Shown piece by piece: positions 7,267 to 35,242 of a DNA stretch of 64,000 nucleotides; position 1 is the first letter of the stretch; each line of letters opens with the position of its first letter. The notes below the pieces were generated by a model. It was not told the DNA's origin, searched no databases, and saw nothing but the letters and a program-made list of their open reading frames with translations. The DNA is taken from assembly GCA_027485835.1 (NCBI GenBank), contig JAIXQG010000002.1:138232-202231 (forward strand), written 5' to 3'. Origin of the DNA: Alphaproteobacteria bacterium. GTDB taxonomy: Bacteria > Pseudomonadota > Alphaproteobacteria > UBA2136 > UBA6156. A program made the translations under genes and the position numbers.

Positions 7267-8646
7267 CTAGGATTTCCTGACGGGCGTGCGGATAAGACCA
7301 CCTTTGCCGCCCTTCATGCTGGTTTTCTTCAGCAGGCTTTCGTATTTCTGGGCAATCAGGGCCGATTGGATGCGGGAGACCGTATCGATCGTCACGCTCA
7401 CCATAATCAGCAGCGAGGTACCACCGATATAGAACGGCAGCGTCGCGTCGCGGTGAAGGATATCCGGCACGGCACAGATAAACGCCAGATACAGTGCGCC
7501 AATGGCGGTCAGGCGGGTTGCCACGCCATCCAGATAGCTGGCGGTGCTGGCACCGGGGCGGATACCGGGGATGAAGGCGCCGGACTTTTTGAGGTTGTCG
7601 GCCGTTTCTTCCGAGTTAAATGCTACGGTGGCCACATAGAAGAACGCGAAGAAGATAATCATGGCCACAAACAACGCCAGATACAGCGGTTTACCAGGAG
7701 TGAGCCATGCACCAATGAACTGCGCCCATGCCGACTCCGGCGCGTACGAGGACATCGTGACAGGCACCATCAACAGCGCACTGGCAAAAATGGGCGGAAT
7801 CACACCGGCAAGGTTCAGCTTGAGCGGCAGGTGGTTATTGTCGCCTGCGGTTGCCCCAAACATACCCTGACGCTTGGGATATTGAATGGCGATACGGCGG
7901 GTGGCGGTTTCCATAAAGGTAATGAAGAAGATGGCCGCAACCGCACCGATGGCGATGACAAACACCAGCAATTCGGAAATGGAACCTGTGCGGGCGAGTT
8001 CGAAGATCTGGAACACTGAGGCGGGCATAGTGGCGACGATACCGGCGAAAATCAGCAGCGAAATGCCGTTACCGATACCGCGGACGTTGATTTGCTCGCC
8101 CAACCACATAAGGAACATGGTGCCGGTGGTGATGGTAAGTGCGGTTTGCAACTGGAAGGCCAGACCGGGGTTGGTGACGAGGTTCATCACTTCGCCATTC
8201 ACAATTGCTGTTTGGTATTGAATGCCGGAAGCCAGACCAAAACCTTGCACAAAAGCAAGCACTACGGTGAGGTATCTCGTGTACTGGTTGATCTTACGAC
8301 GACCAACTTCACCTTCCTTTTTCAGCTCACTCAGCGTGGCCGAGGTTGAGGTAAGAAGCTGGATGATAATGCTGGCAGTGATGTAAGGCATGATATTGAG
8401 CGCGAACACGGCCATGCGCGAAAACGCCCCGCCGGAGAACATGTTGAACAGACCGAACAGGCCGTTTTGCAGGTTCTGCTGATAGCTGGCCAGAACAGTG
8501 ACATCGACACCCGGCAGAGGGATGTGCGTACCGAGACGGTAAATGATGAATGCAAACAGCACAAACAGGATGCGGGTGTGCAAACCTTTGGCTTTGGTGA
8601 GAAGTTCGGCGACTTCCGATTGGGAACCGAGACCGAATTGAGCCAT
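7267..8646 (-). CDS. secY: preprotein translocase subunit SecY
   Basis: 459 aa multi-TM protein with SecY motifs (GIxPYIxASII, etc.). Confidence 0.97.
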   Translation of the reverse strand: MAQFGLGSQSEVAELLTKAKGLHTRILFVLFAFIIYRLGTHIPLPGVDVTVLASYQQNLQNGLFGLFNMFSGGAFSRMAVFALNIMPYITASIIIQLLTSTSATLSELKKEGEVGRRKINQYTRYLTVVLAFVQGFGLASGIQYQTAIVNGEVMNLVTNPGLAFQLQTALTITTGTMFLMWLGEQINVRGIGNGISLLIFAGIVATMPASVFQIFELARTGSISELLVFVIAIGAVAAIFFITFMETATRRIAIQYPKRQGMFGATAGDNNHLPLKLNLAGVIPPIFASALLMVPVTMSSYAPESAWAQFIGAWLTPGKPLYLALFVAMIIFFAFFYVATVAFNSEETADNLKKSGAFIPGIRPGASTASYLDGVATRLTAIGALYLAFICAVPDILHRDATLPFYIGGTSLLIMVSVTIDTVSRIQSALIAQKYESLLKKTSMKGGKGGLIRTPVRKS

Positions 8647-8774
8647 GAAACGATAATTCTCCTAACTAAAAATACTTTCCCCTTTTACGCGAAAGGCTTG
8701 GCTACCGCAAGGTTAGTTAGCTGTTTAAGTGGCGCGCGGGTGGTGGAAATTGCGGCACTACCGGCCATAATAGG

Positions 8775-8812
8775 TAGGATAAATAACGAAACGGCGCCAC
8801 GCGGGCGCCGTT
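8775..8812 (-). terminator. hairpin (ggcgcc-cgcgt-ggcgcc) + T-rich tail downstream of the inserted ORF189
   Basis: Minus-strand reading acggcgcccgcgtggcgccgtttcgttattt. Confidence 0.4.
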
Positions 8813-8832
8813 GTTGTTCGCTTCTTAGTTTA

Positions 8833-9402
8833 CTAATGGAGAGGGTCCAGCAAAATAGGCCCCTTCTCGCCCGAGAGGATATCCACAGCTTTTGTGCTAA
8901 ATCCAAACGGATGCCCGACCGCCAAGCTACGTATGAGGGTAAGAGCCTTCGCAAGATACGGATACTCGCGATGATAACTTACTATTAAGTCCTGAATGTC
9001 CGGCGCGACTTTTGATGGATCAGGGAACCGATACACCGCCATAATGGTTGCAAACCAATGCTCCGCTACCTCCGATGACACCGTTTCATATCTCTTCAGC
9101 AACGCGACATTGTCCCGGTAACGATAGATATGCGGCAGATTGGGATAGTCCTCCGGAACAACGTCCGGCTGCCGAAGCCGCCGCGCAAAGGCGTCGTACC
9201 CTTGCCACATAATGCTTTCTTCGCAGAATTTAAATACCGCAGGCGTATCATCCTTCATAAAAATACGGGCAGAGCCCGGTACATGCGCCTGATACCAGCC
9301 ATGGTCTGCTAGAATTCTCCGAAAGGCTTCAGGCGTTTCTTCGCGATACTTATCAAACAGGCTGAGCGCCTGCCATTTCGGAATTTCGGCACGTACAAAC
9401 AT
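8833..9402 (-). CDS. hypothetical cytoplasmic protein (189 aa, aromatic-rich) inserted between rplO and secY
   Basis: Complete ORF in operon orientation. A rho-independent terminator lies upstream and a hairpin downstream. Composition is lower-GC than the flanking r-protein genes. No family recognised. Confidence 0.55.
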   Translation of the reverse strand: MFVRAEIPKWQALSLFDKYREETPEAFRRILADHGWYQAHVPGSARIFMKDDTPAVFKFCEESIMWQGYDAFARRLRQPDVVPEDYPNLPHIYRYRDNVALLKRYETVSSEVAEHWFATIMAVYRFPDPSKVAPDIQDLIVSYHREYPYLAKALTLIRSLAVGHPFGFSTKAVDILSGEKGPILLDPLH

Positions 9403-9454
9403 GCGCTACCCTTTTGAAAACGTTCCTCGTAGACCTTGCTTATCCTTCATTTGA

Positions 9455-9490
9455 AACAAAAAAACAAGCCCCGGTGTACCGGGGCTTGTT
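9455..9490 (-). terminator. rho-independent terminator right after rplO (caagccccgg-taca-ccggggcttg + T7)
   Basis: Perfect 10-bp stem followed by ttttttt on the minus strand. Unexpected inside the spc operon. Confidence 0.6.
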
Positions 9491-9506
9491 GAAAGCAAAG
9501 GGCTAA

Positions 9507-10049
9507 TTACTTAGCGGCTTTGGCCTTTTGGCTGGTTTCAGCGGTGCGTTCTGCCTTGGGCAGGTAGCGGCCGATGTTTTCCTTCTTCTCGATCAGGGTC
9601 AGAGAGCCACCGGCTTTCTTCACCTTTTCGGCAGCGCTGGCAGAGCAGGCTGCAGCAGTAATGGTCAGCTTGGTCTTCAGTTCGCCGTTACCGAGGATCT
9701 TCAGACCGTCGTAACCCTTCTTGGTCAGACCGGAGGCGATGATGCTCTCAACGGTTACCGGCTTGGAGGCATCCAGACGACCGTCTTCGACCATCTTCTG
9801 CAGCGTACCGAGGTTTACGGTCGCGTAAGTGGTGGTGAAGTTGGTGTTGTTGAAACCACGCATCGGCAGACGACGGTAGAGCGGGTTTTGACCGCCTTCG
9901 AACCCTGCACGCACGTTACCGGATTTACGGGCCTTTTGACCCTTTACACCACGGCCGGAGGTTTTGCCCTTGCCGCTACCGATACCACGACCAACACGGG
10001 TCTTGGACTTGTTCGCGCCTTGGTTATCGCGGATTTGGTTTAATTTCAT
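9507..10049 (-). CDS. rplO: 50S ribosomal protein L15
   Basis: 180 aa with 'MKLNQIRDNQGANKSKTRVGRGIGSGKGKTSGRG', uL15. Confidence 0.95.
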   Translation of the reverse strand: MKLNQIRDNQGANKSKTRVGRGIGSGKGKTSGRGVKGQKARKSGNVRAGFEGGQNPLYRRLPMRGFNNTNFTTTYATVNLGTLQKMVEDGRLDASKPVTVESIIASGLTKKGYDGLKILGNGELKTKLTITAAACSASAAEKVKKAGGSLTLIEKKENIGRYLPKAERTAETSQKAKAAK

Positions 10050-10942: not shown

Positions 10943-11308
10943 TTAGAATTTCAGGCCAGCGGCACGGGCGGCATCGGCCAGTACGCGGAGGCGACCGGTG
11001 AAGCGGTAGCTACCACGGTCGAAGTACACTTCCGAAATACCGGCTTTGGTAGCACGTTCGGCTACGGTCTTACCGATCACTTCAGCGGCTTCCATACCAC
11101 GGCCGTTCTTGAGGCTGCCACGCAGCTTCTTTTCCATGGTGGTTGCAGAAACCAGGGTTACACCCTTGGTGTCGTCGATGATTTGAACGGCGAGGTTCAT
11201 GTTGCTGCGGTAAACCGACATACGCAGTTTGCCCGGTGCGGCCTGGCGCAGCTTGTGACGCACGCGACGCGCGCGGCGTTCGGTGCTGGTCTCACGAAGA
11301 ATCGTCAT
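10943..11308 (-). CDS. rplR: 50S ribosomal protein L18
   Basis: 121 aa uL18 signature (RLRVxxSxxHIYAQVIDD-like 'RMSVYRSNMNLAVQIIDD'). Confidence 0.95.
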   Translation of the reverse strand: MTILRETSTERRARRVRHKLRQAAPGKLRMSVYRSNMNLAVQIIDDTKGVTLVSATTMEKKLRGSLKNGRGMEAAEVIGKTVAERATKAGISEVYFDRGSYRFTGRLRVLADAARAAGLKF

Positions 11309-11561
11309 ACTATGACTGCTCCTATTCTGGTTAACCCCCCTGCCCTATGCGTGGGGGAAGTTGCCACGGTTCTGCGCCTGCATGGGCACCGACCCGTGGA
11401 AAGAGCAAGGCCAACCCAAAGGTGGCAATGCTTAGCCGGTATATGGCGGTAAATGAAGAGTTTGGCAAGGGTTGTTGTAGGAAATTATGATAAAAACACC
11501 CCAAAACAAAAACCCCGCTTGCGCGGGATTTTTGCATCGCTTGGCAGCGAGTTCCGAAGAA

Positions 11562-12107
11562 TTACTTCTTCTTGCCTTCCTTCATGGAAATGAACTCGTT
11601 GGTGTAGCGTACGCCCTTACCCTTGAACGGTTCAGGTGCGCGGCGGCTACGTACGTTGGCTGCAAATTCGCCAACCTTCTGCTTGTCCATGCCGGAGACG
11701 GTCACTTCGGTCTGGTCCTTCACCTCAACGGACAAACCGGCGGGGATCTTGATTTCGATCGGGTGGCTGTAACCCAGGGTCATGTTCAGCTGTTGGCCTT
11801 GCACGGCAGCACGGTAACCCACACCGATGAGCTTCAGGCTGATGCTGAAACCGGTGGTGGTACCGAGAACCATGTTGTTAACCAAAGCACGGGCGGTACC
11901 CCAAGCGGCGCTGAGCGTGCGGGGGTTACCCTTGGGCTCGAACGTCAGCTCGGTGGTGCCTTCGTTCACTGCGCTGGTGACAGTGATGTCGGCCGGCAGT
12001 TCAGTGGTCAGGCTGCCTTTGGCACCCTTGATGGTGATGCTGCGGCCATTGATGGTAGCTTCGACACCCTTGGGCAGCGGAAGCGGTTTTTTACCTACGC
12101 GGGACAT
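11562..12107 (-). CDS. rplF: 50S ribosomal protein L6
   Basis: Start chosen at MSRVGKKPLPLPKGV (uL6 N-terminus), 25 nt after the rpsH stop. Confidence 0.92.
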   Translation of the reverse strand: MSRVGKKPLPLPKGVEATINGRSITIKGAKGSLTTELPADITVTSAVNEGTTELTFEPKGNPRTLSAAWGTARALVNNMVLGTTTGFSISLKLIGVGYRAAVQGQQLNMTLGYSHPIEIKIPAGLSVEVKDQTEVTVSGMDKQKVGEFAANVRSRRAPEPFKGKGVRYTNEFISMKEGKKK

Positions 12108-19348: not shown

Positions 19349-19669
19349 TTACAGCTTGATCTGCACGTCTACGCCGGAAGCGAGGTCCAGCTTCATCAGC
19401 GCGTCGATGGTTTGCGGGGTCGGCTCGACGATTTCCAGCACACGCTTGTGGGTGCGCATTTCGAAGTGCTCGCGGCTCTTCTTGTCGATGTGCGGGCTGC
19501 GCAGGACGCAGAAGCGTTCGATTTTGGTCGGCAGCGGAATCGGACCTTGAACCTTGGCGCCGGTACGACGGGCGGTTTCAACGATCTCGAGGGTGGATTT
19601 ATCCAGCACGCGGTGGTCGTAAGACTTTAGGCGAATACGGATGTTTTGTGCGGCTTCGGCGTTGGCCAT
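19349..19669 (-). CDS. rpsJ: 30S ribosomal protein S10
   Basis: Start set at [23 protein letters not shown], preceded by an aaggagg SD 8 nt upstream. The uS10 core ([18 protein letters not shown]...HFEMRTHKR) is present. The longer upstream ORF extension is rejected. Confidence 0.94.
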
Positions 19670-19919
19670 GAAGCGTTTCCTCCTTGTGTGCTTACGCTTT
19701 TGCCAGCGCATTGGCACGGTTACGACAAATGCCAAACCCCCTGTTTTGCCAAGGGTTTGGCTTAGACCTGATATTGGCAAACATCTCCAGGTCGCTATCT
19801 TTTTCCTGCCACAGGCATGCATACGCACACGAGGGCTTGGGGGCGATATAGGCGCTGGGGGCCTAGGTGTCAAGCGGAAAACATAGAAAAATGAATGGGG
19901 GTAAGGGATTTTCTTGCGG

Positions 19920-19960
19920 TGGTGGTTTGGGACAAAAAAGAACCTCCCCGTTTGGACCGG
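19920..19960 (-). terminator. rho-independent terminator (cctctccgg-tccaaac-ggggagg + T-run) after the 146-aa hypothetical gene
   Basis: Hairpin followed by ttctttttt on the minus strand, directly after the stop at 19982. Confidence 0.5.
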
Positions 19961-19981
19961 AGAGGTAGTGCGATATTGAGT

Positions 19982-20422
19982 TTAGGCGGTCTGATTGTAA
20001 TGAATGTACAGCAGGGACGACAAATTGTCGCACCACCAACTTCCGATTGCAGAACTCACTTCGACCCTTCTGTTACCCGTAAACATATAGGGATACGGGA
20101 CACTGTCATCCTCCTCCTGAAAGAAGAATGATACCTTCGAAGTCTTGTTGACCGACGCGAGGTAGCTCAGCACGAAGGCATTCAGAGACTCACGTGGAGT
20201 TGGAAGATCGTCAGTCGCATTTTCAGACCCAGCAAGTTCGAGTTCGACGCCGTCGACGAAGATGATTGTATAATCATCCCCACGATATTTCTGTCTCTTG
20301 TCGATAACTTCTATTTTTTTTGCAGCATCCAGAGCTGCAATAAGTTTGTTGCGGTCTGATTCGTTGATCTGAAGGATGGTGCGGATATTGAGAAGGTCGT
20401 CAGCAAACATATCTTTCTCCAT
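19982..20422 (-). CDS. hypothetical acidic protein (146 aa), lower-GC
   Basis: Complete ORF with its own terminator. No recognisable family. AT-richer than surrounding core genes. Confidence 0.45.
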   Translation of the reverse strand: MEKDMFADDLLNIRTILQINESDRNKLIAALDAAKKIEVIDKRQKYRGDDYTIIFVDGVELELAGSENATDDLPTPRESLNAFVLSYLASVNKTSKVSFFFQEEDDSVPYPYMFTGNRRVEVSSAIGSWWCDNLSSLLYIHYNQTA

Positions 20423-20574
20423 TTGTTTTGCTGGTTATTCTGGATACCATCGGCATACCTCACGCGTAATAACAGCCCTTCGGGCCGTACAAACGGTTCA
20501 GATATGTCGATGGCAGAGCCAGTCTACATTCTTATAGCTGCTGGCACATTTTACTTAGCTGACATAAAGAAAAA

Positions 20575-20600
20575 GCCGCCCGAAGGCGACTTTCTCCTCC
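20575..20600 (-). terminator. rho-independent terminator (gtcgcc-ttcg-ggcggc + TTTTT) after the 116-aa hypothetical gene
   Basis: Read directly from sequence on the minus strand. Confidence 0.5.
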
Positions 20601-20615
20601 CCGAAGGGACGTTCG

Positions 20616-20966
20616 TTAAGCTGAGATACCGAGCTTTGCCTTGAAAAAGTTCAAGGCATCGATAGCTTCCTGCAGCGCCCGCTCTGGGCTGAGGCCGAGA
20701 GCGCGGATGTGAACGTCGGTGGAGTGCGCCGCCAGTTCAGCGGCGGCAGCGAGGAAGTCACCACGCGACGCTTGTTCCTGAGCCGCGTACATCGCGGCTT
20801 CAGGGCCGCAATTTGCGGAATCCCAATCCGTCGGTTCGACAGGAGCTGGAATGGCTTTTGTCTTCTTCACCTCATACAGGAAGCGAGCGCGAGCGCCCCC
20901 GCGTACCGGGTAAGAGGTGGCGAAGAACGAAGCGGCAGCGGCAAGATTAACAGCAGTGTTCGACAT
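20616..20966 (-). CDS. hypothetical Ala-rich protein (116 aa)
   Basis: Complete ORF bracketed by a terminator downstream and palindromes upstream. No family recognised. Confidence 0.45.
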   Translation of the reverse strand: MSNTAVNLAAAASFFATSYPVRGGARARFLYEVKKTKAIPAPVEPTDWDSANCGPEAAMYAAQEQASRGDFLAAAAELAAHSTDVHIRALGLSPERALQEAIDALNFFKAKLGISA

Positions 20967-21221
20967 GATTTTGCTCCTATGGCGTTGGTGTCGACAAAAT
21001 GATCAGTCCCTACGGGACAGAAAAACGGCTCAGTACGAGCCAGTTTCCTGTCCCGTACCTAATGGTACTGTAATTCTTTATATACAGCCTCTCCAGCCGG
21101 TTTTGAAGGCGAACTGACAGGCTTTTTTATTCGTTTTATTTCGAGTCTAATTTATTTAAAAACATACAATTAAACCTTATTAAGTATCTACTACATTAGC
21201 TTTACAGCCCTCCTTTCATGG

Positions 21222-21256
21222 TCAAAAAAGGCCCGCCGTTGCTGGCGGGCCTTGTG
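21222..21256 (-). terminator. rho-independent terminator after gcrA (aggcccgcc-agcaa-cggcgggcct + T6)
   Basis: Perfect stem followed by a T-run on the minus strand. Confidence 0.6.
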
Positions 21257-21276
21257 TCGTGATTGTGATTGGTGGT

Positions 21277-21855
21277 TTAGACCATGGGTCGGTAGCGGCT
21301 GAGGCCGCGGTCATGAAGATCCGTGAAGTGACCAATCTTGACCTTGCCATTAGAGGCTTTCAAACGCTCCAAGTGACCGACGCAGATACTTCCACCCTCT
21401 TTAGCGGCTGGGTTGCCGCAGTAGAGAGCCTGTCCGCCCAAGTCAAAGCGGTCATCGCCGGGCATAAGGTACGTTTTGCACTGACCGTCGGCCAGTTCAA
21501 GCAACGTAACCCCCCGACAGGTAAAGCTTGGCTTCGCCTCGTCTTTCTTTGGCTTTCGTGGCGTTTGGCTGCGGGGCACTACCGGTTGCAGCAGGGCGGA
21601 GTATTTGCCTCCCTTCGGACGTTTGGGTTTGGCCGCAGAGTGTGACGACTTGCCTTTTGCCGCAGGCTTTTTGGCAGAACCTGCCGCCCGCTGCTGGGTT
21701 TTGCGTGCCGGAAGCTTGAGACGATACGCCTTACCCACGACGCAATTGACGGATGGCGCCCCTAACTTTTTGGCGATTTCGCTTTTGGAAAGCCCCTCAT
21801 CCCAATACTTTTTCAGATCTTCGACCGCTTCGGCGGTCCATGAGAACTCGGACAT
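21277..21855 (-). CDS. gcrA: GcrA family cell-cycle transcriptional regulator
   Basis: 'MSEFSWTAEAVEDLKKYWDEGLSKSEIAKKLGAPSVNCVVGKAYRLKLPAR' N-terminal domain, a basic linker, and a conserved Cys-containing C-terminal domain. Confidence 0.82.
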   Translation of the reverse strand: MSEFSWTAEAVEDLKKYWDEGLSKSEIAKKLGAPSVNCVVGKAYRLKLPARKTQQRAAGSAKKPAAKGKSSHSAAKPKRPKGGKYSALLQPVVPRSQTPRKPKKDEAKPSFTCRGVTLLELADGQCKTYLMPGDDRFDLGGQALYCGNPAAKEGGSICVGHLERLKASNGKVKIGHFTDLHDRGLSRYRPMV

Positions 21856-21934
21856 GTCTTACTCCTCGTAAAGAGTCATTTAATAGGAGAAACTGGCTGC
21901 GTAGTGAGTGTTTGTAAGATGTATTTGCATAAGG

Positions 21935-21965
21935 TGCAAAAGAAAAGGGGGCTAAAGCCCCCCCT
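21935..21965 (-). terminator. rho-independent terminator (gggggggc-ttta-gccccc + T-run) after the 129-aa membrane-protein gene
   Basis: Read directly from sequence. Confidence 0.5.
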
Positions 21966-21973
21966 TCCCTCAA

Positions 21974-22363
21974 TTAAAATAGAAAACCGCTCACAAATTC
22001 CCAAACGGGCGTAAAAGGCGCCCAAAGAATTTTGATTGTCGCCCATGCGATAAGCAAGGCGCTAAAATGCATAGCTAGTAACATAAAGACACTGCAAATA
22101 TGCACCATTTCAGCCATCACTGCATAAAGCCTGAATGATTCTTCCCTAAAAAGCATCATCAGAGCCAAGAGTATCAGAAGTACTATTAAACAGGCTGAGG
22201 ACTCAATTAACATTGTCCCTCTCTGCCATGCATTTTTCTCAAGAAGTCGGTTCACATTCAGGCATTTGCCTGAGAGCTTATGCTTGCGTTTAAACCCTTT
22301 AGCCACGTTTTTTGCCTTAGAGTTCAGTTGGTTTCTTAGCTCATTTAAGAGTCCTTTTTTCAT
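21974..22363 (-). CDS. hypothetical small membrane protein (129 aa), low-GC
   Basis: Basic N-terminus plus two or three hydrophobic helices. AT-rich. Own terminator. Confidence 0.45.
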   Translation of the reverse strand: MKKGLLNELRNQLNSKAKNVAKGFKRKHKLSGKCLNVNRLLEKNAWQRGTMLIESSACLIVLLILLALMMLFREESFRLYAVMAEMVHICSVFMLLAMHFSALLIAWATIKILWAPFTPVWEFVSGFLF

Positions 22364-22539
22364 GTTGTTTTTTCCTTATGATAGACCCCACGCGCGGCTG
22401 GGGTGTGCGCCGAGAACCGTTCCTCGTATAGATTTCCTTCCGTTTTAGAGGGTTAAAATGATTATAGATTCACGCATTCTAGTTATTAGTATACACAATG
22501 AATACACCAATTCAAGTATACAAATCAGTTTGGTTCCTA

Positions 22540-22572
22540 AAAAAAGGGCCCCGTGGGGCCCCTTCTCGTTGC
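22540..22572 (-). terminator. rho-independent terminator after rpoC (ggggcccc-acg-gggcccttttttt)
   Basis: Hairpin followed by T7 immediately after the rpoC stop. Confidence 0.65.
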
Positions 22573-22578
22573 GGTCTG

Positions 22579-26703
<4,125 letters not shown>

Positions 26704-26718: not shown

Positions 26719-31134
<4,416 letters not shown>

Positions 31135-31797: not shown

Positions 31798-32106
31798 TTA
31801 AACCGCCGCGTTTGGCTTGGCCCCGCGCTTGATGATGGAGAGATACCCGCCATTACCGCGACTGAGAAAGCGCGCGACGCGGGTGACGGTGGCAAGGGCG
31901 ATTCCGGTACGCGAAGCTACGTCCCGCTGGCTAAGACCCTGATGCAGCAAGCGTGCGGCATGCCAGCGGTCGGCAAAGGCGGCAATTTCGGTCGGCGTGC
32001 AGAGGTCGGCCAAAAAGGCTTTTACCTCTTCCGGAGTTTCTAACATCAGAAATGCGGCATAGAGGTCGGATTCCGACGGCTGATGGTGGGCGAGGTCTTT
32101 TTTCAT
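31798..32106 (-). CDS. YerC/YecD-family TrpR-like DNA-binding protein
   Basis: 102 aa with 'LCTPTEIAAFADRWHAARLL.QGLSQRDVASRTGIALATVTRVARFL', a trp-repressor-like HTH. It sits between rplL and rpoB. Confidence 0.7.
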   Translation of the reverse strand: MKKDLAHHQPSESDLYAAFLMLETPEEVKAFLADLCTPTEIAAFADRWHAARLLHQGLSQRDVASRTGIALATVTRVARFLSRGNGGYLSIIKRGAKPNAAV

Positions 32107-33637: not shown

Positions 33638-35242
33638 TTAATCCAGCTTGGCTTTTAAAGTCGCCTTGCGCAGCATGCGGGCCAGCGGAGGCACAACTTT
33701 GGCCAAACGGTCTGCCAACTGGCCCAGCAACTGGCGGCGGCTCAGCACAAACTGCATGTTCAGCACCACACCCAGCAGTGGGGCACCTACCAGCAGCAAG
33801 CTATCGGTGGCGCGCTTAAGCTCGGACTGTGTGGTGACACCCGCTTGCGCCAGCAGCAGCGTGCGAGCACTTGCAGAAGCGACAGCAACAGCATCCACAT
33901 TCCCGCGGTTCACGGCGGCCAGCGGGCTACCATCCACAATCACGATATCGGCCATGTCGGTCAGCATATCGAACAGTACCGGCAAACCACCCGCCTCGCC
34001 CAGCTTGCTCAGGGTTTCCGGATGGCGCGGTGCGGCCAGAAGCTTCATATTCTCGTTACCGGGCATGGGTTGCAAAGCATCCCAGCCGCCTTTTTTGGGT
34101 TTGGCGCCCTTCGGCAATTCCCAGTTACCATCGCCCAAGCCCAGCCATTGGCTCAGCATACGGTCACGCAGGTTCATATCGACCAGAATCACGGTTTTAC
34201 CTTGCTCAGATGTCCGTTCCGCCAACAGCAGGGCCAGCGTGCTGCTGCCTTCCGAGCCCTTCGGCCCCAAAACCACTAACGGCCCACGCAGGTTGCGCAC
34301 CAGAGAGCGGTGCAGGCGGCCGAGCTCACTGAACTCCGACGGGCGCAGCTTTTTGCCACCGGCCATCACATGCAGACCGCGCGGGGTAATATTCAGTTTG
34401 CCCAGCCACGGCAGGGTACCCACAACTTGCATATCACTGGCCTTAGTTGCGTCATCTTCACCTTCAATCACCGCACGGTTGGCAAAGGGCAGCTTTTGCA
34501 GCAAGCCGAACAGCAGGCCACCGAGCAGACCCGCCAGAATCATGTTCGCTACAACACGGGCAGTACCTTGCAGCGGCTCACTCATCGTCGCGGTTTCGGC
34601 AAACCATACCAGCGCTTGGCTCCCGTGGCGGCCAAAGGCTAAATTCACACGGCGCAGGTCGCTTTGCAGCTGCACGGTGTCGCCCTGCAATTTTTCGCTA
34701 CGGGCGTTCAATTCCAAGCGGGTCGCTTCGTCGGCACCATCGGAGGTGGCCAAACGACCGACGATTTCTTTCAGCTCCTGCTGGTTTTGCAGAATCATCT
34801 GCTCCAAGCGCATGCGCTCCGGTGCCAGCAAGGCCTGAATAAAGTTATAGGCCAGTGCATCCGTCATCTGCTCCAAACCTTCCGGCTTGGTGCTGCGGTA
34901 GCTGATGGTCATCAAATTGTTGTTAATGACGCGCAGCGAGACCTTATCGGCCTCAATCTTACGGTGTGCATCAGCACCTGTATCTGCTAGCAATTGCGGG
35001 TTGACCAAAATCTGGCGTAAAGCTTCACCCTGACCAGGCGCGCTAATACTCTGTAACAGTGGCGATTTCGCTTGATCCGACTGCACTTGCAACAAGGCGG
35101 TAGCCTCAAATGTGGGCGGCACCTGCACGCTGTAAATTGCCGCCAGCAGAGTGAACACCACTACAGGCACACCTATTTTGACGCGCACGCGCCACATTTC
35201 TGCCAATGTATTCAAGATGATATTCATAGAGCGCGCTTTCAT
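33638..35242 (-). CDS. polysaccharide co-polymerase (Wzz/GumC/ExoP-like) protein with degenerate C-terminal BY-kinase-like ATPase domain
   Basis: 534 aa with N-terminal TM + periplasmic coiled-coil + second TM topology. C-terminal P-loop-like 'VVLGPKGSEGSSTLA' lacks the Walker-A Lys (GKS->GSS). 'VILVDMNLRD' is a degenerate Walker A'. 'DIVIVDGSP' is Walker-B-like. Confidence 0.65.
   Translation of the reverse strand: MKARSMNIILNTLAEMWRVRVKIGVPVVVFTLLAAIYSVQVPPTFEATALLQVQSDQAKSPLLQSISAPGQGEALRQILVNPQLLADTGADAHRKIEADKVSLRVINNNLMTISYRSTKPEGLEQMTDALAYNFIQALLAPERMRLEQMILQNQQELKEIVGRLATSDGADEATRLELNARSEKLQGDTVQLQSDLRRVNLAFGRHGSQALVWFAETATMSEPLQGTARVVANMILAGLLGGLLFGLLQKLPFANRAVIEGEDDATKASDMQVVGTLPWLGKLNITPRGLHVMAGGKKLRPSEFSELGRLHRSLVRNLRGPLVVLGPKGSEGSSTLALLLAERTSEQGKTVILVDMNLRDRMLSQWLGLGDGNWELPKGAKPKKGGWDALQPMPGNENMKLLAAPRHPETLSKLGEAGGLPVLFDMLTDMADIVIVDGSPLAAVNRGNVDAVAVASASARTLLLAQAGVTTQSELKRATDSLLLVGAPLLGVVLNMQFVLSRRQLLGQLADRLAKVVPPLARMLRKATLKAKLD

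Follow-up and report, generated by a model that had tools for sequence, protein, structure and literature searches.

Gene content of the interval between rpoC and rpsJ

The window, i.e. the whole stretch of 64,000 nucleotides that was analysed, carries on its minus strand the order rpoB-rpoC, a gene for a 129-aa membrane protein, gcrA, open reading frames for proteins of 116 and 146 aa, a promoter with a leader of about 175 nt, and rpsJ-rplC. The genes rpoC and rpsJ are about 2.9 kb apart, and the following features can be distinguished, listed in the direction of transcription.

22579..26703, minus strand: rpoC (1374 aa), recognized from its ORF and translation; intrinsic terminator at about 22540-22566, seen as an inverted repeat and in the predicted fold
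21974..22363, minus strand: gene for a small membrane protein of 129 aa (X); terminator at about 21942-21967, -24.9 kcal/mol
21277..21855, minus strand: gcrA, GcrA family (Pfam PF07750), 192 aa; terminator 21228-21253
21113..21222, minus strand: AT-rich spacer downstream of the gcrA terminator, 76% identical to the nearest relative (L081)
21002..21112, minus strand: highly conserved element of about 110 nt; TTCAAA-N17-TATATA at 21107-21079 resembles a promoter and is accompanied by a 47-nt hairpin
20616..20966, minus strand: ORF of 116 aa, Ala-rich and all-helical; AGGAG Shine-Dalgarno sequence; terminator at about 20566-20597, -25.5 kcal/mol
19982..20422, minus strand: ORF of 146 aa, acidic; terminator 19942-19966
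19839..19915, minus strand: predicted S10-operon promoter block; TTGACA (19873-19868) and TATATC (19850-19845) are 17 nt apart, with T-rich DNA upstream
19664..19838, minus strand: 5' leader of about 175 nt ahead of rpsJ, structured, with many TGGCA/TGCCA pentamers
19349..19663, minus strand: rpsJ, first gene of the S10 operon (Pfam Ribosomal_S10, 132.9 bits)

According to the ORF list, rpsJ is followed by rplC, rplD, rplW, rplB, rpsS and the rest of the S10 operon. Few gene orders in bacteria are as well conserved as rpoBC-str-S10-spc, which is believed to be maintained by the joint transcription of adjacent operons. Here the str genes are missing upstream of rpsJ, as the initial annotation had claimed. 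The gene map shows no rpsL, rpsG, fusA or tuf anywhere in the 64 kb, and tblastn searches of the same 64 kb with E. coli RpsL, RpsG and EF-Tu gave zero matches. The gap is filled by a GcrA-family gene and by small genes that are terminated separately: a GC-rich hairpin followed by a U-run is present 3' of rpoC (predicted fold -20.5 kcal/mol, with a U7 run) and of each of the four small genes, with energies from -15.8 to -27.6 kcal/mol.

The description of this DNA as a low-GC island has to be qualified. The 129-aa gene (40.8%), the 146-aa gene (46.3%) and the spacers (43-52%; 42.9% for the entire region between gcrA and the 116-aa ORF) are indeed low in GC, but gcrA (56.6%) and the host-like 116-aa ORF (59.5%) match the window mean of 56.2%. 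Codon usage is atypical in the 129-aa gene (CAI 0.33) and in the 146-aa gene (CAI 0.46). Nor is the region one single island upstream of rpsJ, since at least three or four related genomes have orthologues of the 129-aa gene and of gcrA at the same position.

Residents and turnover in related genomes

The key relatives were found through exact look-ups of RpsS and RplP; look-ups of the 146-aa protein, GcrA and RpsJ gave no match. The frame rpoC-X-gcrA-[variable]-rpsJ recurs in independent assemblies from NCBI (L092), ENA (L094), Logan (L093) and JGI (L081). In L001, whose RpoC is 86% identical, rpsJ lies 2.75 kb after rpoC, again without str genes, and the interval holds three different opposite-strand genes. 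A chimeric join of the rpoBC and S10 regions during assembly could be considered, the source being a single genome whose proteins are database singletons, but the common frame in four independent assemblies and the same rpoC-to-rpsJ adjacency in L001 reduce the probability of such an artefact to practically nil.

Two genes of the frame are retained. In L092 and L093 the gene directly after rpoC encodes a protein (151 and 134 aa, respectively) that is 44-47% identical to the 129-aa protein; homologues of the 129-aa gene in relatives have 51-52% GC. The protein has hydrophobic helices, in keeping with its initial description as membrane-like, and belongs to no family in Pfam, NCBIfam, PADLOC or PHROGs. 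Positional orthologues of gcrA (37-66% identity) occur in L081, L092/L094 and L093. Both genes are residents of this position in the clade; being positional orthologues across the clade, they are not cargo.

The gcrA product matches Pfam PF07750 over residues 5-161, covering both domains, with 81.8 bits (cutoff 26.9), but stays below the NCBIfam equivalog for the cell-cycle sigma-70 cofactor (NF050816; 59.5 bits against a cutoff of 280). It combines a canonical N-terminal DNA-binding domain with a derived C-terminal domain that has a six-residue insertion. GcrA of Caulobacter crescentus is a sigma-70 cofactor and cell-cycle regulator; members of the equivalog bind sigma-70 and promoters with methylated GANTC. 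The N-terminal domain (residues 3-47) aligns with its structures (7ye1_G, E = 1.5e-10; 5yiu_A, E = 2.5e-9), and the C-terminal Cys, Gly and His positions are retained. However, the proteins are only weakly similar overall (7ye1, 44.7 bits), the canonical C-WP-GDP motif is missing although it is still present in the L093 orthologue, and only in the present clade does the gene lie next to rpoC and rpsJ. The CtrA half-site that had been proposed for the gcrA promoter region did not hold up. The sequence TTAA-N7-TTTAC is found upstream of gcrA at 21868-21883, but when the box TTAA-N7-TTAAC was searched with one mismatch allowed, 8 occurrences were counted in the window against 7.5 expected. The pattern is thus at chance frequency, and it is not shared by three relatives: in an alignment of the sequences upstream of gcrA, the corresponding positions read CTAAGTGTCTAGTCAC in L081, TTTATTGTCTAGTCAC in L092 and GGTATGTCCAGTCAC in L093.

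Turnover is confined to the DNA that separates gcrA from the S10 promoter; DNA similarity to the relatives starts at 19915-19975. In the window this slot contains the 116-aa and 146-aa ORFs; in the nearest relative it has an unrelated gene for 133 aa, in two assemblies an opposite-strand gene for 173 aa, and in L093 no called gene, with a GC-rich stretch and then a T-run just before the S10 promoter block. These contents are unrelated from genome to genome. In other members of the clade the break lies elsewhere: unrelated genes follow rpoC in L003 and L005, and in L006 an opposite-strand 412-aa gene separates rpoC from rpsL-rpsG, after which comes a gene other than fusA. In a wider sample, rpsL is retained after rpoC in 47 of 67 alphaproteobacterial loci. 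The gene order is thus not kept family-wide, in agreement with the initial annotation. Additional terminator/promoter cuts with orphan inserts are found within the spc operon of this genome and its relatives, at L6|L18 and L15|secY.

Orphan reading frames and the hairpin element

The initial annotation correctly described the 116-aa protein as Ala-rich and the 146-aa protein as acidic (24 D/E against 15 K/R). Public annotation starts the latter at the second Met, which gives 142 aa. Among 5.8 billion clusters the 116-aa protein matched only itself, and its gene is missing in all relatives examined; its interpretation as a diverged homologue of the 133-aa protein of L081 was rejected (E = 2.9). 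The 146-aa protein likewise returned a self-match only. A full HMMER scan with this protein gave weak, repeat-inflated matches to giant adhesin-like/cadherin-like or repeat proteins, which were treated as spurious. Neither protein has a match in Pfam, NCBIfam, PADLOC or PHROGs. Single-sequence AF2 models reached pLDDT values of 36.9 (146 aa) and 50.8 (116 aa) and were too poor for fold searches for that reason.

Rather than a functional pair, the two predicted orphan genes are most likely young genes or dispensable accessory ones. The initial annotation had proposed that they form a two-gene module such as toxin/immunity or a regulator pair, and they are indeed adjacent, small and on the same strand, with one product acidic. 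Co-transcription is contradicted by the intrinsic terminator (-25.5 kcal/mol) and the 193-nt spacer between the genes. Neither product matches a known toxin, antitoxin, immunity or defence family in the four collections mentioned or has a credible homologue, and no relative carries both genes, the slot being occupied by an unrelated gene, an opposite-strand gene or none. A module of this kind is thus very improbable.

The palindromes noted upstream of the 116-aa gene, GTCCC-GTA-GGGAC (21006-21018) and GTACC-ATTA-GGTAC (21055-21068), are present and mark either end of a longer inverted repeat, whose arms of 21 nt (21011-21031 and 21037-21057) form the 47-nt hairpin (21011-21057), with small hairpins that overlap it as alternatives. 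Both palindromes are kept in the nearest relative. An RNA fold of -39.3 kcal/mol (z = -4.0) is predicted here. The element of about 110 nt to which it belongs is 99% identical to L081 (one mismatch and a 3-nt loop insertion), whereas the flanks are 76-78% identical, and its position coincides exactly with the border of the DNA not shared with L081. It was not found in L092, L093, L094 or L097. Searches of Rfam with this element and with the S10 leader gave no match at gathering thresholds and sub-threshold noise only at E-value thresholds. Conservation of 99% beside a variable stretch is a poor fit to simple neutral turnover.

It can be asked whether one or both orphan ORFs are genes at all; the stretch might instead be regulatory and non-coding, as DNA or as RNA (a small RNA or an attenuator, for instance). 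The promoter-hairpin element would then drive an RNA, and the 116-aa ORF would be a chance frame in GC-rich DNA. The hairpin has a terminator-like core (GGCUC-GUACU-GAGCC-G-U5) right after the promoter-like site, a 97-aa antisense ORF with similar GC3 overlaps the 116-aa ORF, the orphans lack homologues and have low-confidence structure models, and the L093 slot, with its GC-rich stretch and T-run before the S10 promoter, has no called gene. However, both ORFs have a properly spaced Shine-Dalgarno sequence and a terminator at most 40 nt past the stop codon, both are present in public annotation, and the foreign composition of the 146-aa ORF suits an acquired gene. We consider the non-coding reading unlikely.

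There is a slim chance that the element is a new functional element, either a small RNA or attenuator gating the slot gene, or a hairpin used by an as yet unknown insertion mechanism. The latter mechanism would seed orphan genes into the ribosomal-operon junctions of the clade; similar inserts are present at L6|L18 and L15|secY.

The region could also be a mobile-element remnant (a prophage, an integrative island or an integron-like cassette array) with the 47-nt hairpin as recombination site. The low GC and atypical codon usage of the 129-aa and 146-aa genes, the cassette-like genes with their own terminators, the start of variable DNA immediately 3' of the highly conserved hairpin, and the presence of GcrA-like genes in phage-like contigs (L082) would be consistent with this. 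On the other hand, no integrase, transposase, tRNA gene, or long or flanking direct repeats were found, and searches of phage and plasmid collections gave no similar DNA. The hairpin has no match in viral contigs, occurs once in the window, and is missing in other relatives whose slots vary regardless; gcrA and the 129-aa gene are positionally orthologous across the clade. An integron cassette array was rejected specifically: there is no integrase ORF, the hairpin is single and lies 5' of the variable DNA, and the 3' ends of the supposed cassettes are ordinary terminators. A mobile origin of the region is accordingly quite improbable.

The S10 leader and the break in the supercluster

The promoters were read by consensus, from sequence alone. 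The S10 promoter block is common to the window, L081, L092, L093 and L097, and its hexamers also occur in L001; it is absent from the promoter-scan output because the -10 hexamer ends in C. The leader that follows has a predicted fold of -65.9 kcal/mol (z = -3.1), in which its 5' end pairs with the Shine-Dalgarno region. It is nearly invariant in five close relatives, and the hairpins are kept in L001. Compensatory changes (CG/GC; CG/UA/UG) were found at two pairs of the hairpin just 5' of the Shine-Dalgarno sequence, in a set of six sequences of which five are nearly identical. The repeat richness noted initially was confirmed: the 182-nt leader has 6 copies of TGGCA/TGCCA where 0.62 would be expected, a count that no other 182-nt stretch of the window reaches. 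This DNA is better described as the 5' UTR of the S10 operon, structured and conserved, than as inverted-repeat-rich leader DNA. In loci where tuf-rpsJ is kept, the spacer is just 20-125 nt (23 of 24 loci). A sigma-54 promoter within the TGGCA-rich leader was rejected on sequence, since the spacing is wrong by one nucleotide.

The E. coli S10 leader is autoregulatory and is bound by L4. The present leader resembles it in being a long, conserved and structured 5' UTR ahead of rpsJ. It differs in having no Rfam match and in being found only in the present clade, where tuf no longer precedes rpsJ. Most E. coli ribosomal-protein leaders are restricted to Gammaproteobacteria (Fu et al. 2013, PMC3616713).

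The observations at the locus and in its relatives are probably best explained by a lineage-specific break of the rpoBC-str-S10 supercluster that left a permissive insertion slot. Such a break can be described in four steps. In the first step, which concerns an uncultured alphaproteobacterial clade, the str block (rpsL-rpsG-fusA-tuf), which is absent from the rpoC-rpsJ interval, would have moved to another location; we read these genes as moved and not lost because they are essential. As a second step, rpoC would have come to end at its own terminator and the S10 operon to start from its own sigma-70-type promoter and the structured leader of about 175 nt. This leader, which is structured and conserved, would presumably supply both the expression and the feedback control formerly provided by read-through from tuf. 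Thirdly, the small membrane-protein gene and the clade's gcrA, which reside there according to their positional orthologues, would have settled between both operons. Finally, the DNA from the gcrA terminator to the S10 promoter would be a transcriptionally insulated, insertion-tolerant slot for small promoter-gene-terminator units. Its content does turn over; this may proceed by illegitimate insertion of foreign DNA or by de novo emergence of ORFs, followed by loss.

A break of this kind would make the clade a natural example of supercluster decay and of harmless settling sites for new or foreign small genes, in which insulated junctions, some of them inside the spc operon, gather different orphan genes in close relatives. 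It also adds a rapidly evolving variant of GcrA and a candidate for a new S10 leader RNA. The rearrangement is real but fairly ordinary in kind, and current understanding stands.

Phage morons are autonomous promoter-gene-terminator units inserted between conserved genes. The small genes described here are similar in being self-contained with a terminator, in having conserved neighbours and in their variable presence, and some share an atypical composition. The setting is different, being a chromosomal ribosomal-gene cluster, and phage similarity was not found in PHROGs, phage collections or viral contigs. Rickettsia prowazekii, also an alphaproteobacterium with a broken str/S10 linkage, reportedly has rearranged fus and tuf genes with tuf split from the str operon, an observation said to go back to Syvanen et al. 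in 1996. In that organism tuf presumably still precedes rpsJ, whereas neither tuf nor fusA is nearby in the present case.

[quoted passage not shown] The features that define a supercluster disconnection event (Brandis 2021) were all found here: unrelated inserted genes, lost concatenation and restriction to a clade. As in the published cases, a few unrelated genes without mobility functions separate two operons, concatenation is broken, and gene order decays further in related lineages afterwards. The present junction differs in that the whole str operon is gone between rpoBC and S10, in that the clade is alphaproteobacterial with an orphan-gene slot that differs even among close relatives, and in that more cuts are present inside the spc operon.

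Gene order between rpoC and rpsJ

The str genes (rpsL-rpsG-fusA-tuf), usually located between rpoBC and the S10 operon, are missing upstream of rpsJ, as the initial annotation had noted for tuf and fusA. They are absent from the whole window and not just locally, since the E. coli RpsL, RpsG and EF-Tu sequences had no tblastn match anywhere in the 64 kb and the EF-Tu query also caught EF-G in other loci, so that the negative result was taken to cover the str-operon genes. The junction is organized as follows.

Genes at the rpoC-rpsJ junction (window coordinates)
26719-31134, minus strand: rpoB
22579-26703, minus strand: rpoC
21974-22363, minus strand: 129-aa ORF, a small membrane-protein gene (X)
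21277-21855, minus strand: GcrA-family gene
20616-20966, minus strand: 116-aa ORF
19982-20422, minus strand: 146-aa ORF
19349-19663, minus strand: rpsJ, then rplC, rplD, rplW, rplB, rpsS, rplV, rpsC, rplP and the rest

A GC-rich hairpin with a U-run is found within ~40 nt after rpoC and after each of the four small genes (−15.8 to −27.6 kcal/mol). These folds confirm that every small gene has its own intrinsic terminator, and predict that rpoC and the four small genes are transcribed separately, as five units from the same strand. The description of the region as a low-GC island applies to the 129-aa gene (40.8%, CAI 0.33), the 146-aa gene (46.3%, CAI 0.46) and the spacers (43-52%), compared to 56.2% for the window, but not to gcrA (56.6%) or the 116-aa gene (59.5%).

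When the last 400 residues of RpoC were used as a query, 80 alphaproteobacterial loci came up, with six MAGs close to the window (73-85% identity) and the remaining loci at 60% or less. In 47 of the 67 loci that have at least 3 kb downstream of rpoC, rpsL comes next (within 700 nt in 35 of those); about 18 are without it. Other close MAGs are broken at different points, with other genes after rpoC in L003 (lpxC and ftsZ), L005 (unrelated genes) and L006 (an opposite-strand 412-aa gene, next rpsL-rpsG and last a non-fusA gene). Only one locus in this set, L001 (RpoC 86%), has rpsJ less than 3 kb from rpoC without str genes, and in its 2.75 kb gap there are three unrelated genes, all on the opposite strand, and non-coding DNA of ~1 kb. 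Two of these genes (L001 11620-12885) encode a 235-aa protein whose C-terminal domain is serum-amyloid-A-like and which has an HPNCQC motif, and a CarG-like protein of 185 aa. The two may be a pair of the toxin/immunity type, and are followed by the non-coding DNA, which is GCC-rich and of low complexity.

Nearer relatives were found through the closest GcrA homologue (L081, JGI) or by exact-sequence match to the RpsS and RplP of the window. The order is rpoC, 151 aa, GcrA, opposite-strand 173 aa, rpsJ in L092 (NCBI GCA_005768725.1) and L094 (ENA); rpoC 3′ end, 134 aa, GcrA, ~500 nt without a called gene, rpsJ in L093/L102 (Logan); and GcrA, 133 aa, rpsJ in L081. In L097 an opposite-strand ketoacyl-synthase-like gene adjoins the S10 promoter on the upstream side. 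The X homologues of 129, 151 and 134 aa are 44-47% identical, and the GcrA proteins of the window and relatives align over their full length (37-66% identity). Because of these homologies the frame rpoC-X-gcrA-[slot]-rpsJ, in which the slot runs from the gcrA terminator to the S10 promoter block, is a property of the clade. An assembly artefact is ruled out by the shared frame.

GcrA, the variable slot and a conserved 110-nt element

The window GcrA scores above threshold for the Pfam GcrA family, and there is a good alignment between its N-terminal domain and the Caulobacter domain of known structure, but at 59.5 bits the protein is far below the NCBIfam equivalog cutoff of 280. In the window, L081 and L092 the C-terminal domain is derived (CKTYLMPGDDRFDLGGQALYCGNP...) and carries a six-residue insertion. 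L093 has a positional orthologue (923-1459) that keeps the canonical C-WP-GDP...FCG...YC..H pattern. The orthologues differ sharply in this sigma-70-interacting domain; the neighbouring rpsJ DNA is 93-96% identical. The gcrA of the window is the clade's own fast-evolving gene and not cargo of an island. A GcrA-like gene also occurs in a phage-like contig (L082 8001-8636), where its neighbours match SNF2, N6_N4 methyltransferase, PAPS-reductase-like, DnaB and HNH families.

The CtrA half-site proposed for gcrA (21868-21883) is among 8 sites in the window that fit the pattern with one mismatch, where 7.5 are expected, and is not kept in the aligned gcrA upstream regions of L081, L092 and L093; with chance frequency and no conservation, the proposal is unsupported. 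Those upstream regions share a TTGCA-type −35 and a CTACAA/TTACAA −10. Downstream of promoter-like hexamers, a CACTACGCAGCCARTTT block is present in the gcrA 5′ untranslated region of the window (21885-21905) and of the same three relatives.

Within the slot BLASTN detected no DNA shared with relatives other than L081, and similarity picks up again at 19915-19975. The 116- and 146-aa proteins encoded here have no counterpart in any relative examined, show no resemblance to the L081 133-aa protein, and hit no family in Pfam, NCBIfam, PADLOC or PHROGs. No credible homologue of either turned up in searches of 5.8 billion clusters or of 1.8 billion representatives, and their structure models were unusable. 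In addition, a terminator stands between the two genes. The suggestion that they constitute a toxin/immunity or regulator pair is unsupported. Searches for marks of mobile elements found neither an integrase nor a tRNA, no direct repeats that were long or flanking, and no similarity to phages, plasmids or viruses. The terminator upstream of gcrA in L081 (3-35) is 85% identical to the one downstream of the window 146-aa gene (19933-19965), so that different units may be bordered by terminator modules of a similar kind.

The two small palindromes of the initial annotation mark the two ends of an inverted repeat whose arms are 21 nt long (21011-21057, 86% complementary; hairpin sequence CGGGACAGGAAACTGGCTCGTACTGAGCCGTTTTTCTGTCCCG). 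It is enclosed by a ~110-nt block (21002-21112), single-copy in the window, whose differences from L081 are one substitution and an insertion of 3 nt in a loop; identity around it is 76% in the AT-rich spacer, 78% in the gcrA 3′ half and 57% in the gcrA 5′ half. The palindromes are thus conserved in L081 within this block, but the element is absent from L092, L093, L094 and L097.

The block contains a promoter-like TTCAAA-N17-TATATA with hairpins directly after it, the core GGCUC-GUACU-GAGCC-G-UUUUU being terminator-like. As minus-strand RNA it folds at −39.3 kcal/mol (z = −4.0), where the single substitution leaves G-U pairs, against an A-C mismatch on the opposite strand. Folding is good for the plus strand as well (z = −3.65), with a weak hairpin and T6 at its end. 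It is also possible to read the block as the final 36 codons of an ORF on the plus strand (window 20917-21117; L081 903-1121 (-)): the C-terminal RDRKTAQYEPVSCP[V/A]PNGTVILYIQPLQPVLKAN is identical at 35/36 residues and the 3-nt indel is in frame, while the N-terminal parts of these opposite-strand ORFs are unrelated. Our best guess for the element is a small RNA or an attenuator, or else a 5′ hairpin with a stabilising role for the first gene of the slot.

The S10 promoter and leader

The predicted promoter, TTGACA-N17-TATATC (19873-19845), and a T-rich upstream stretch are conserved in the window, L081, L092, L093 and L097, and L001 has the hexamers too. Over ~175 nt the leader shares 95% identity with that of L081, and it is almost unchanged in five relatives; L001 retains its two central hairpins. 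Its predicted fold (−65.9 kcal/mol, z = −3.1) pairs the 5′ end with the Shine-Dalgarno region. The hairpin just upstream of the Shine-Dalgarno occurs with three stem versions, all paired (UGCGCU/AGCGUA, UACCUU/AAGGUA and UACCUU/AGGGUA), and RNAalifold identified compensatory changes in two pairs.

The reported richness in TGGCA/TGCCA is real (6 against 0.62 expected, unique in the window) and originates from the leader stems and loops, but it is not a deeply conserved sequence motif, as the count falls to 1 in L001. No Rfam family matched the leader. Where tuf-rpsJ is kept, the spacer is 20-125 nt in 23 of 24 loci. We infer from these comparisons that the leader is clade-specific and replaces read-through from tuf; as a candidate function, it may be autoregulatory. 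This leader and the conserved 110-nt element are the sole parts of the locus that might repay more work.

A fragmented ribosomal supercluster

In view of the above, the locus is likely a lineage-specific supercluster break, in which X and gcrA are resident, the S10 promoter and leader have newly become autonomous, and two orphan genes of probably dispensable function occupy a permissive slot. The initial annotation was largely correct in its observation, and its interpretation is supported in part.

Cuts and inserts occur at further positions. The spc operon is cut in the rplF/rplR gap (11308-11562) by a terminator hairpin with a T-run, by TTGCCA-N17-TATACC, which is promoter-like, and by a leader of ~130 nt; relatives have here a conserved secreted Gly-rich ~139-aa gene (L092 15739-16158, L093 10237-10653, L103 4038-4460; 46-74% identical) and extra small ORFs, which the window lacks. 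Between rplO and secY (8646-9507) lies a terminator-flanked 189-aa orphan ORF (8833-9402) matching no Pfam family, and L092 and L093 have no gene at this position. A 102-aa TrpR-family (Trp-repressor) gene is found between rplL and rpoB (31798-32106), and a Wzz-like 534-aa gene (33638-35242) replaces the usual rplKA upstream of rplJ. Several insulated junctions thus fragment the ribosomal supercluster, and the one at rpoC/rpsJ is among them. Among the encoded proteins, L4 (17901-18656) and L22 (15921-16412) carry Lys/Ala-rich C-terminal extensions and RpoB has a Lys/Ala/Glu-rich insertion of ~60-70 residues (about 27900-28150).

Reconstructions for Gammaproteobacteria and Bacilli describe operon concatenation broken by small insertions and then further disconnection, the sole neutral insertion point being between the stop codon of one operon and the promoter of the next (PMC8046335, PMC6735719). 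The process at the window junctions is the same as in these published supercluster breaks, and the rpoC/rpsJ break is a fresh example of an already known type of event.
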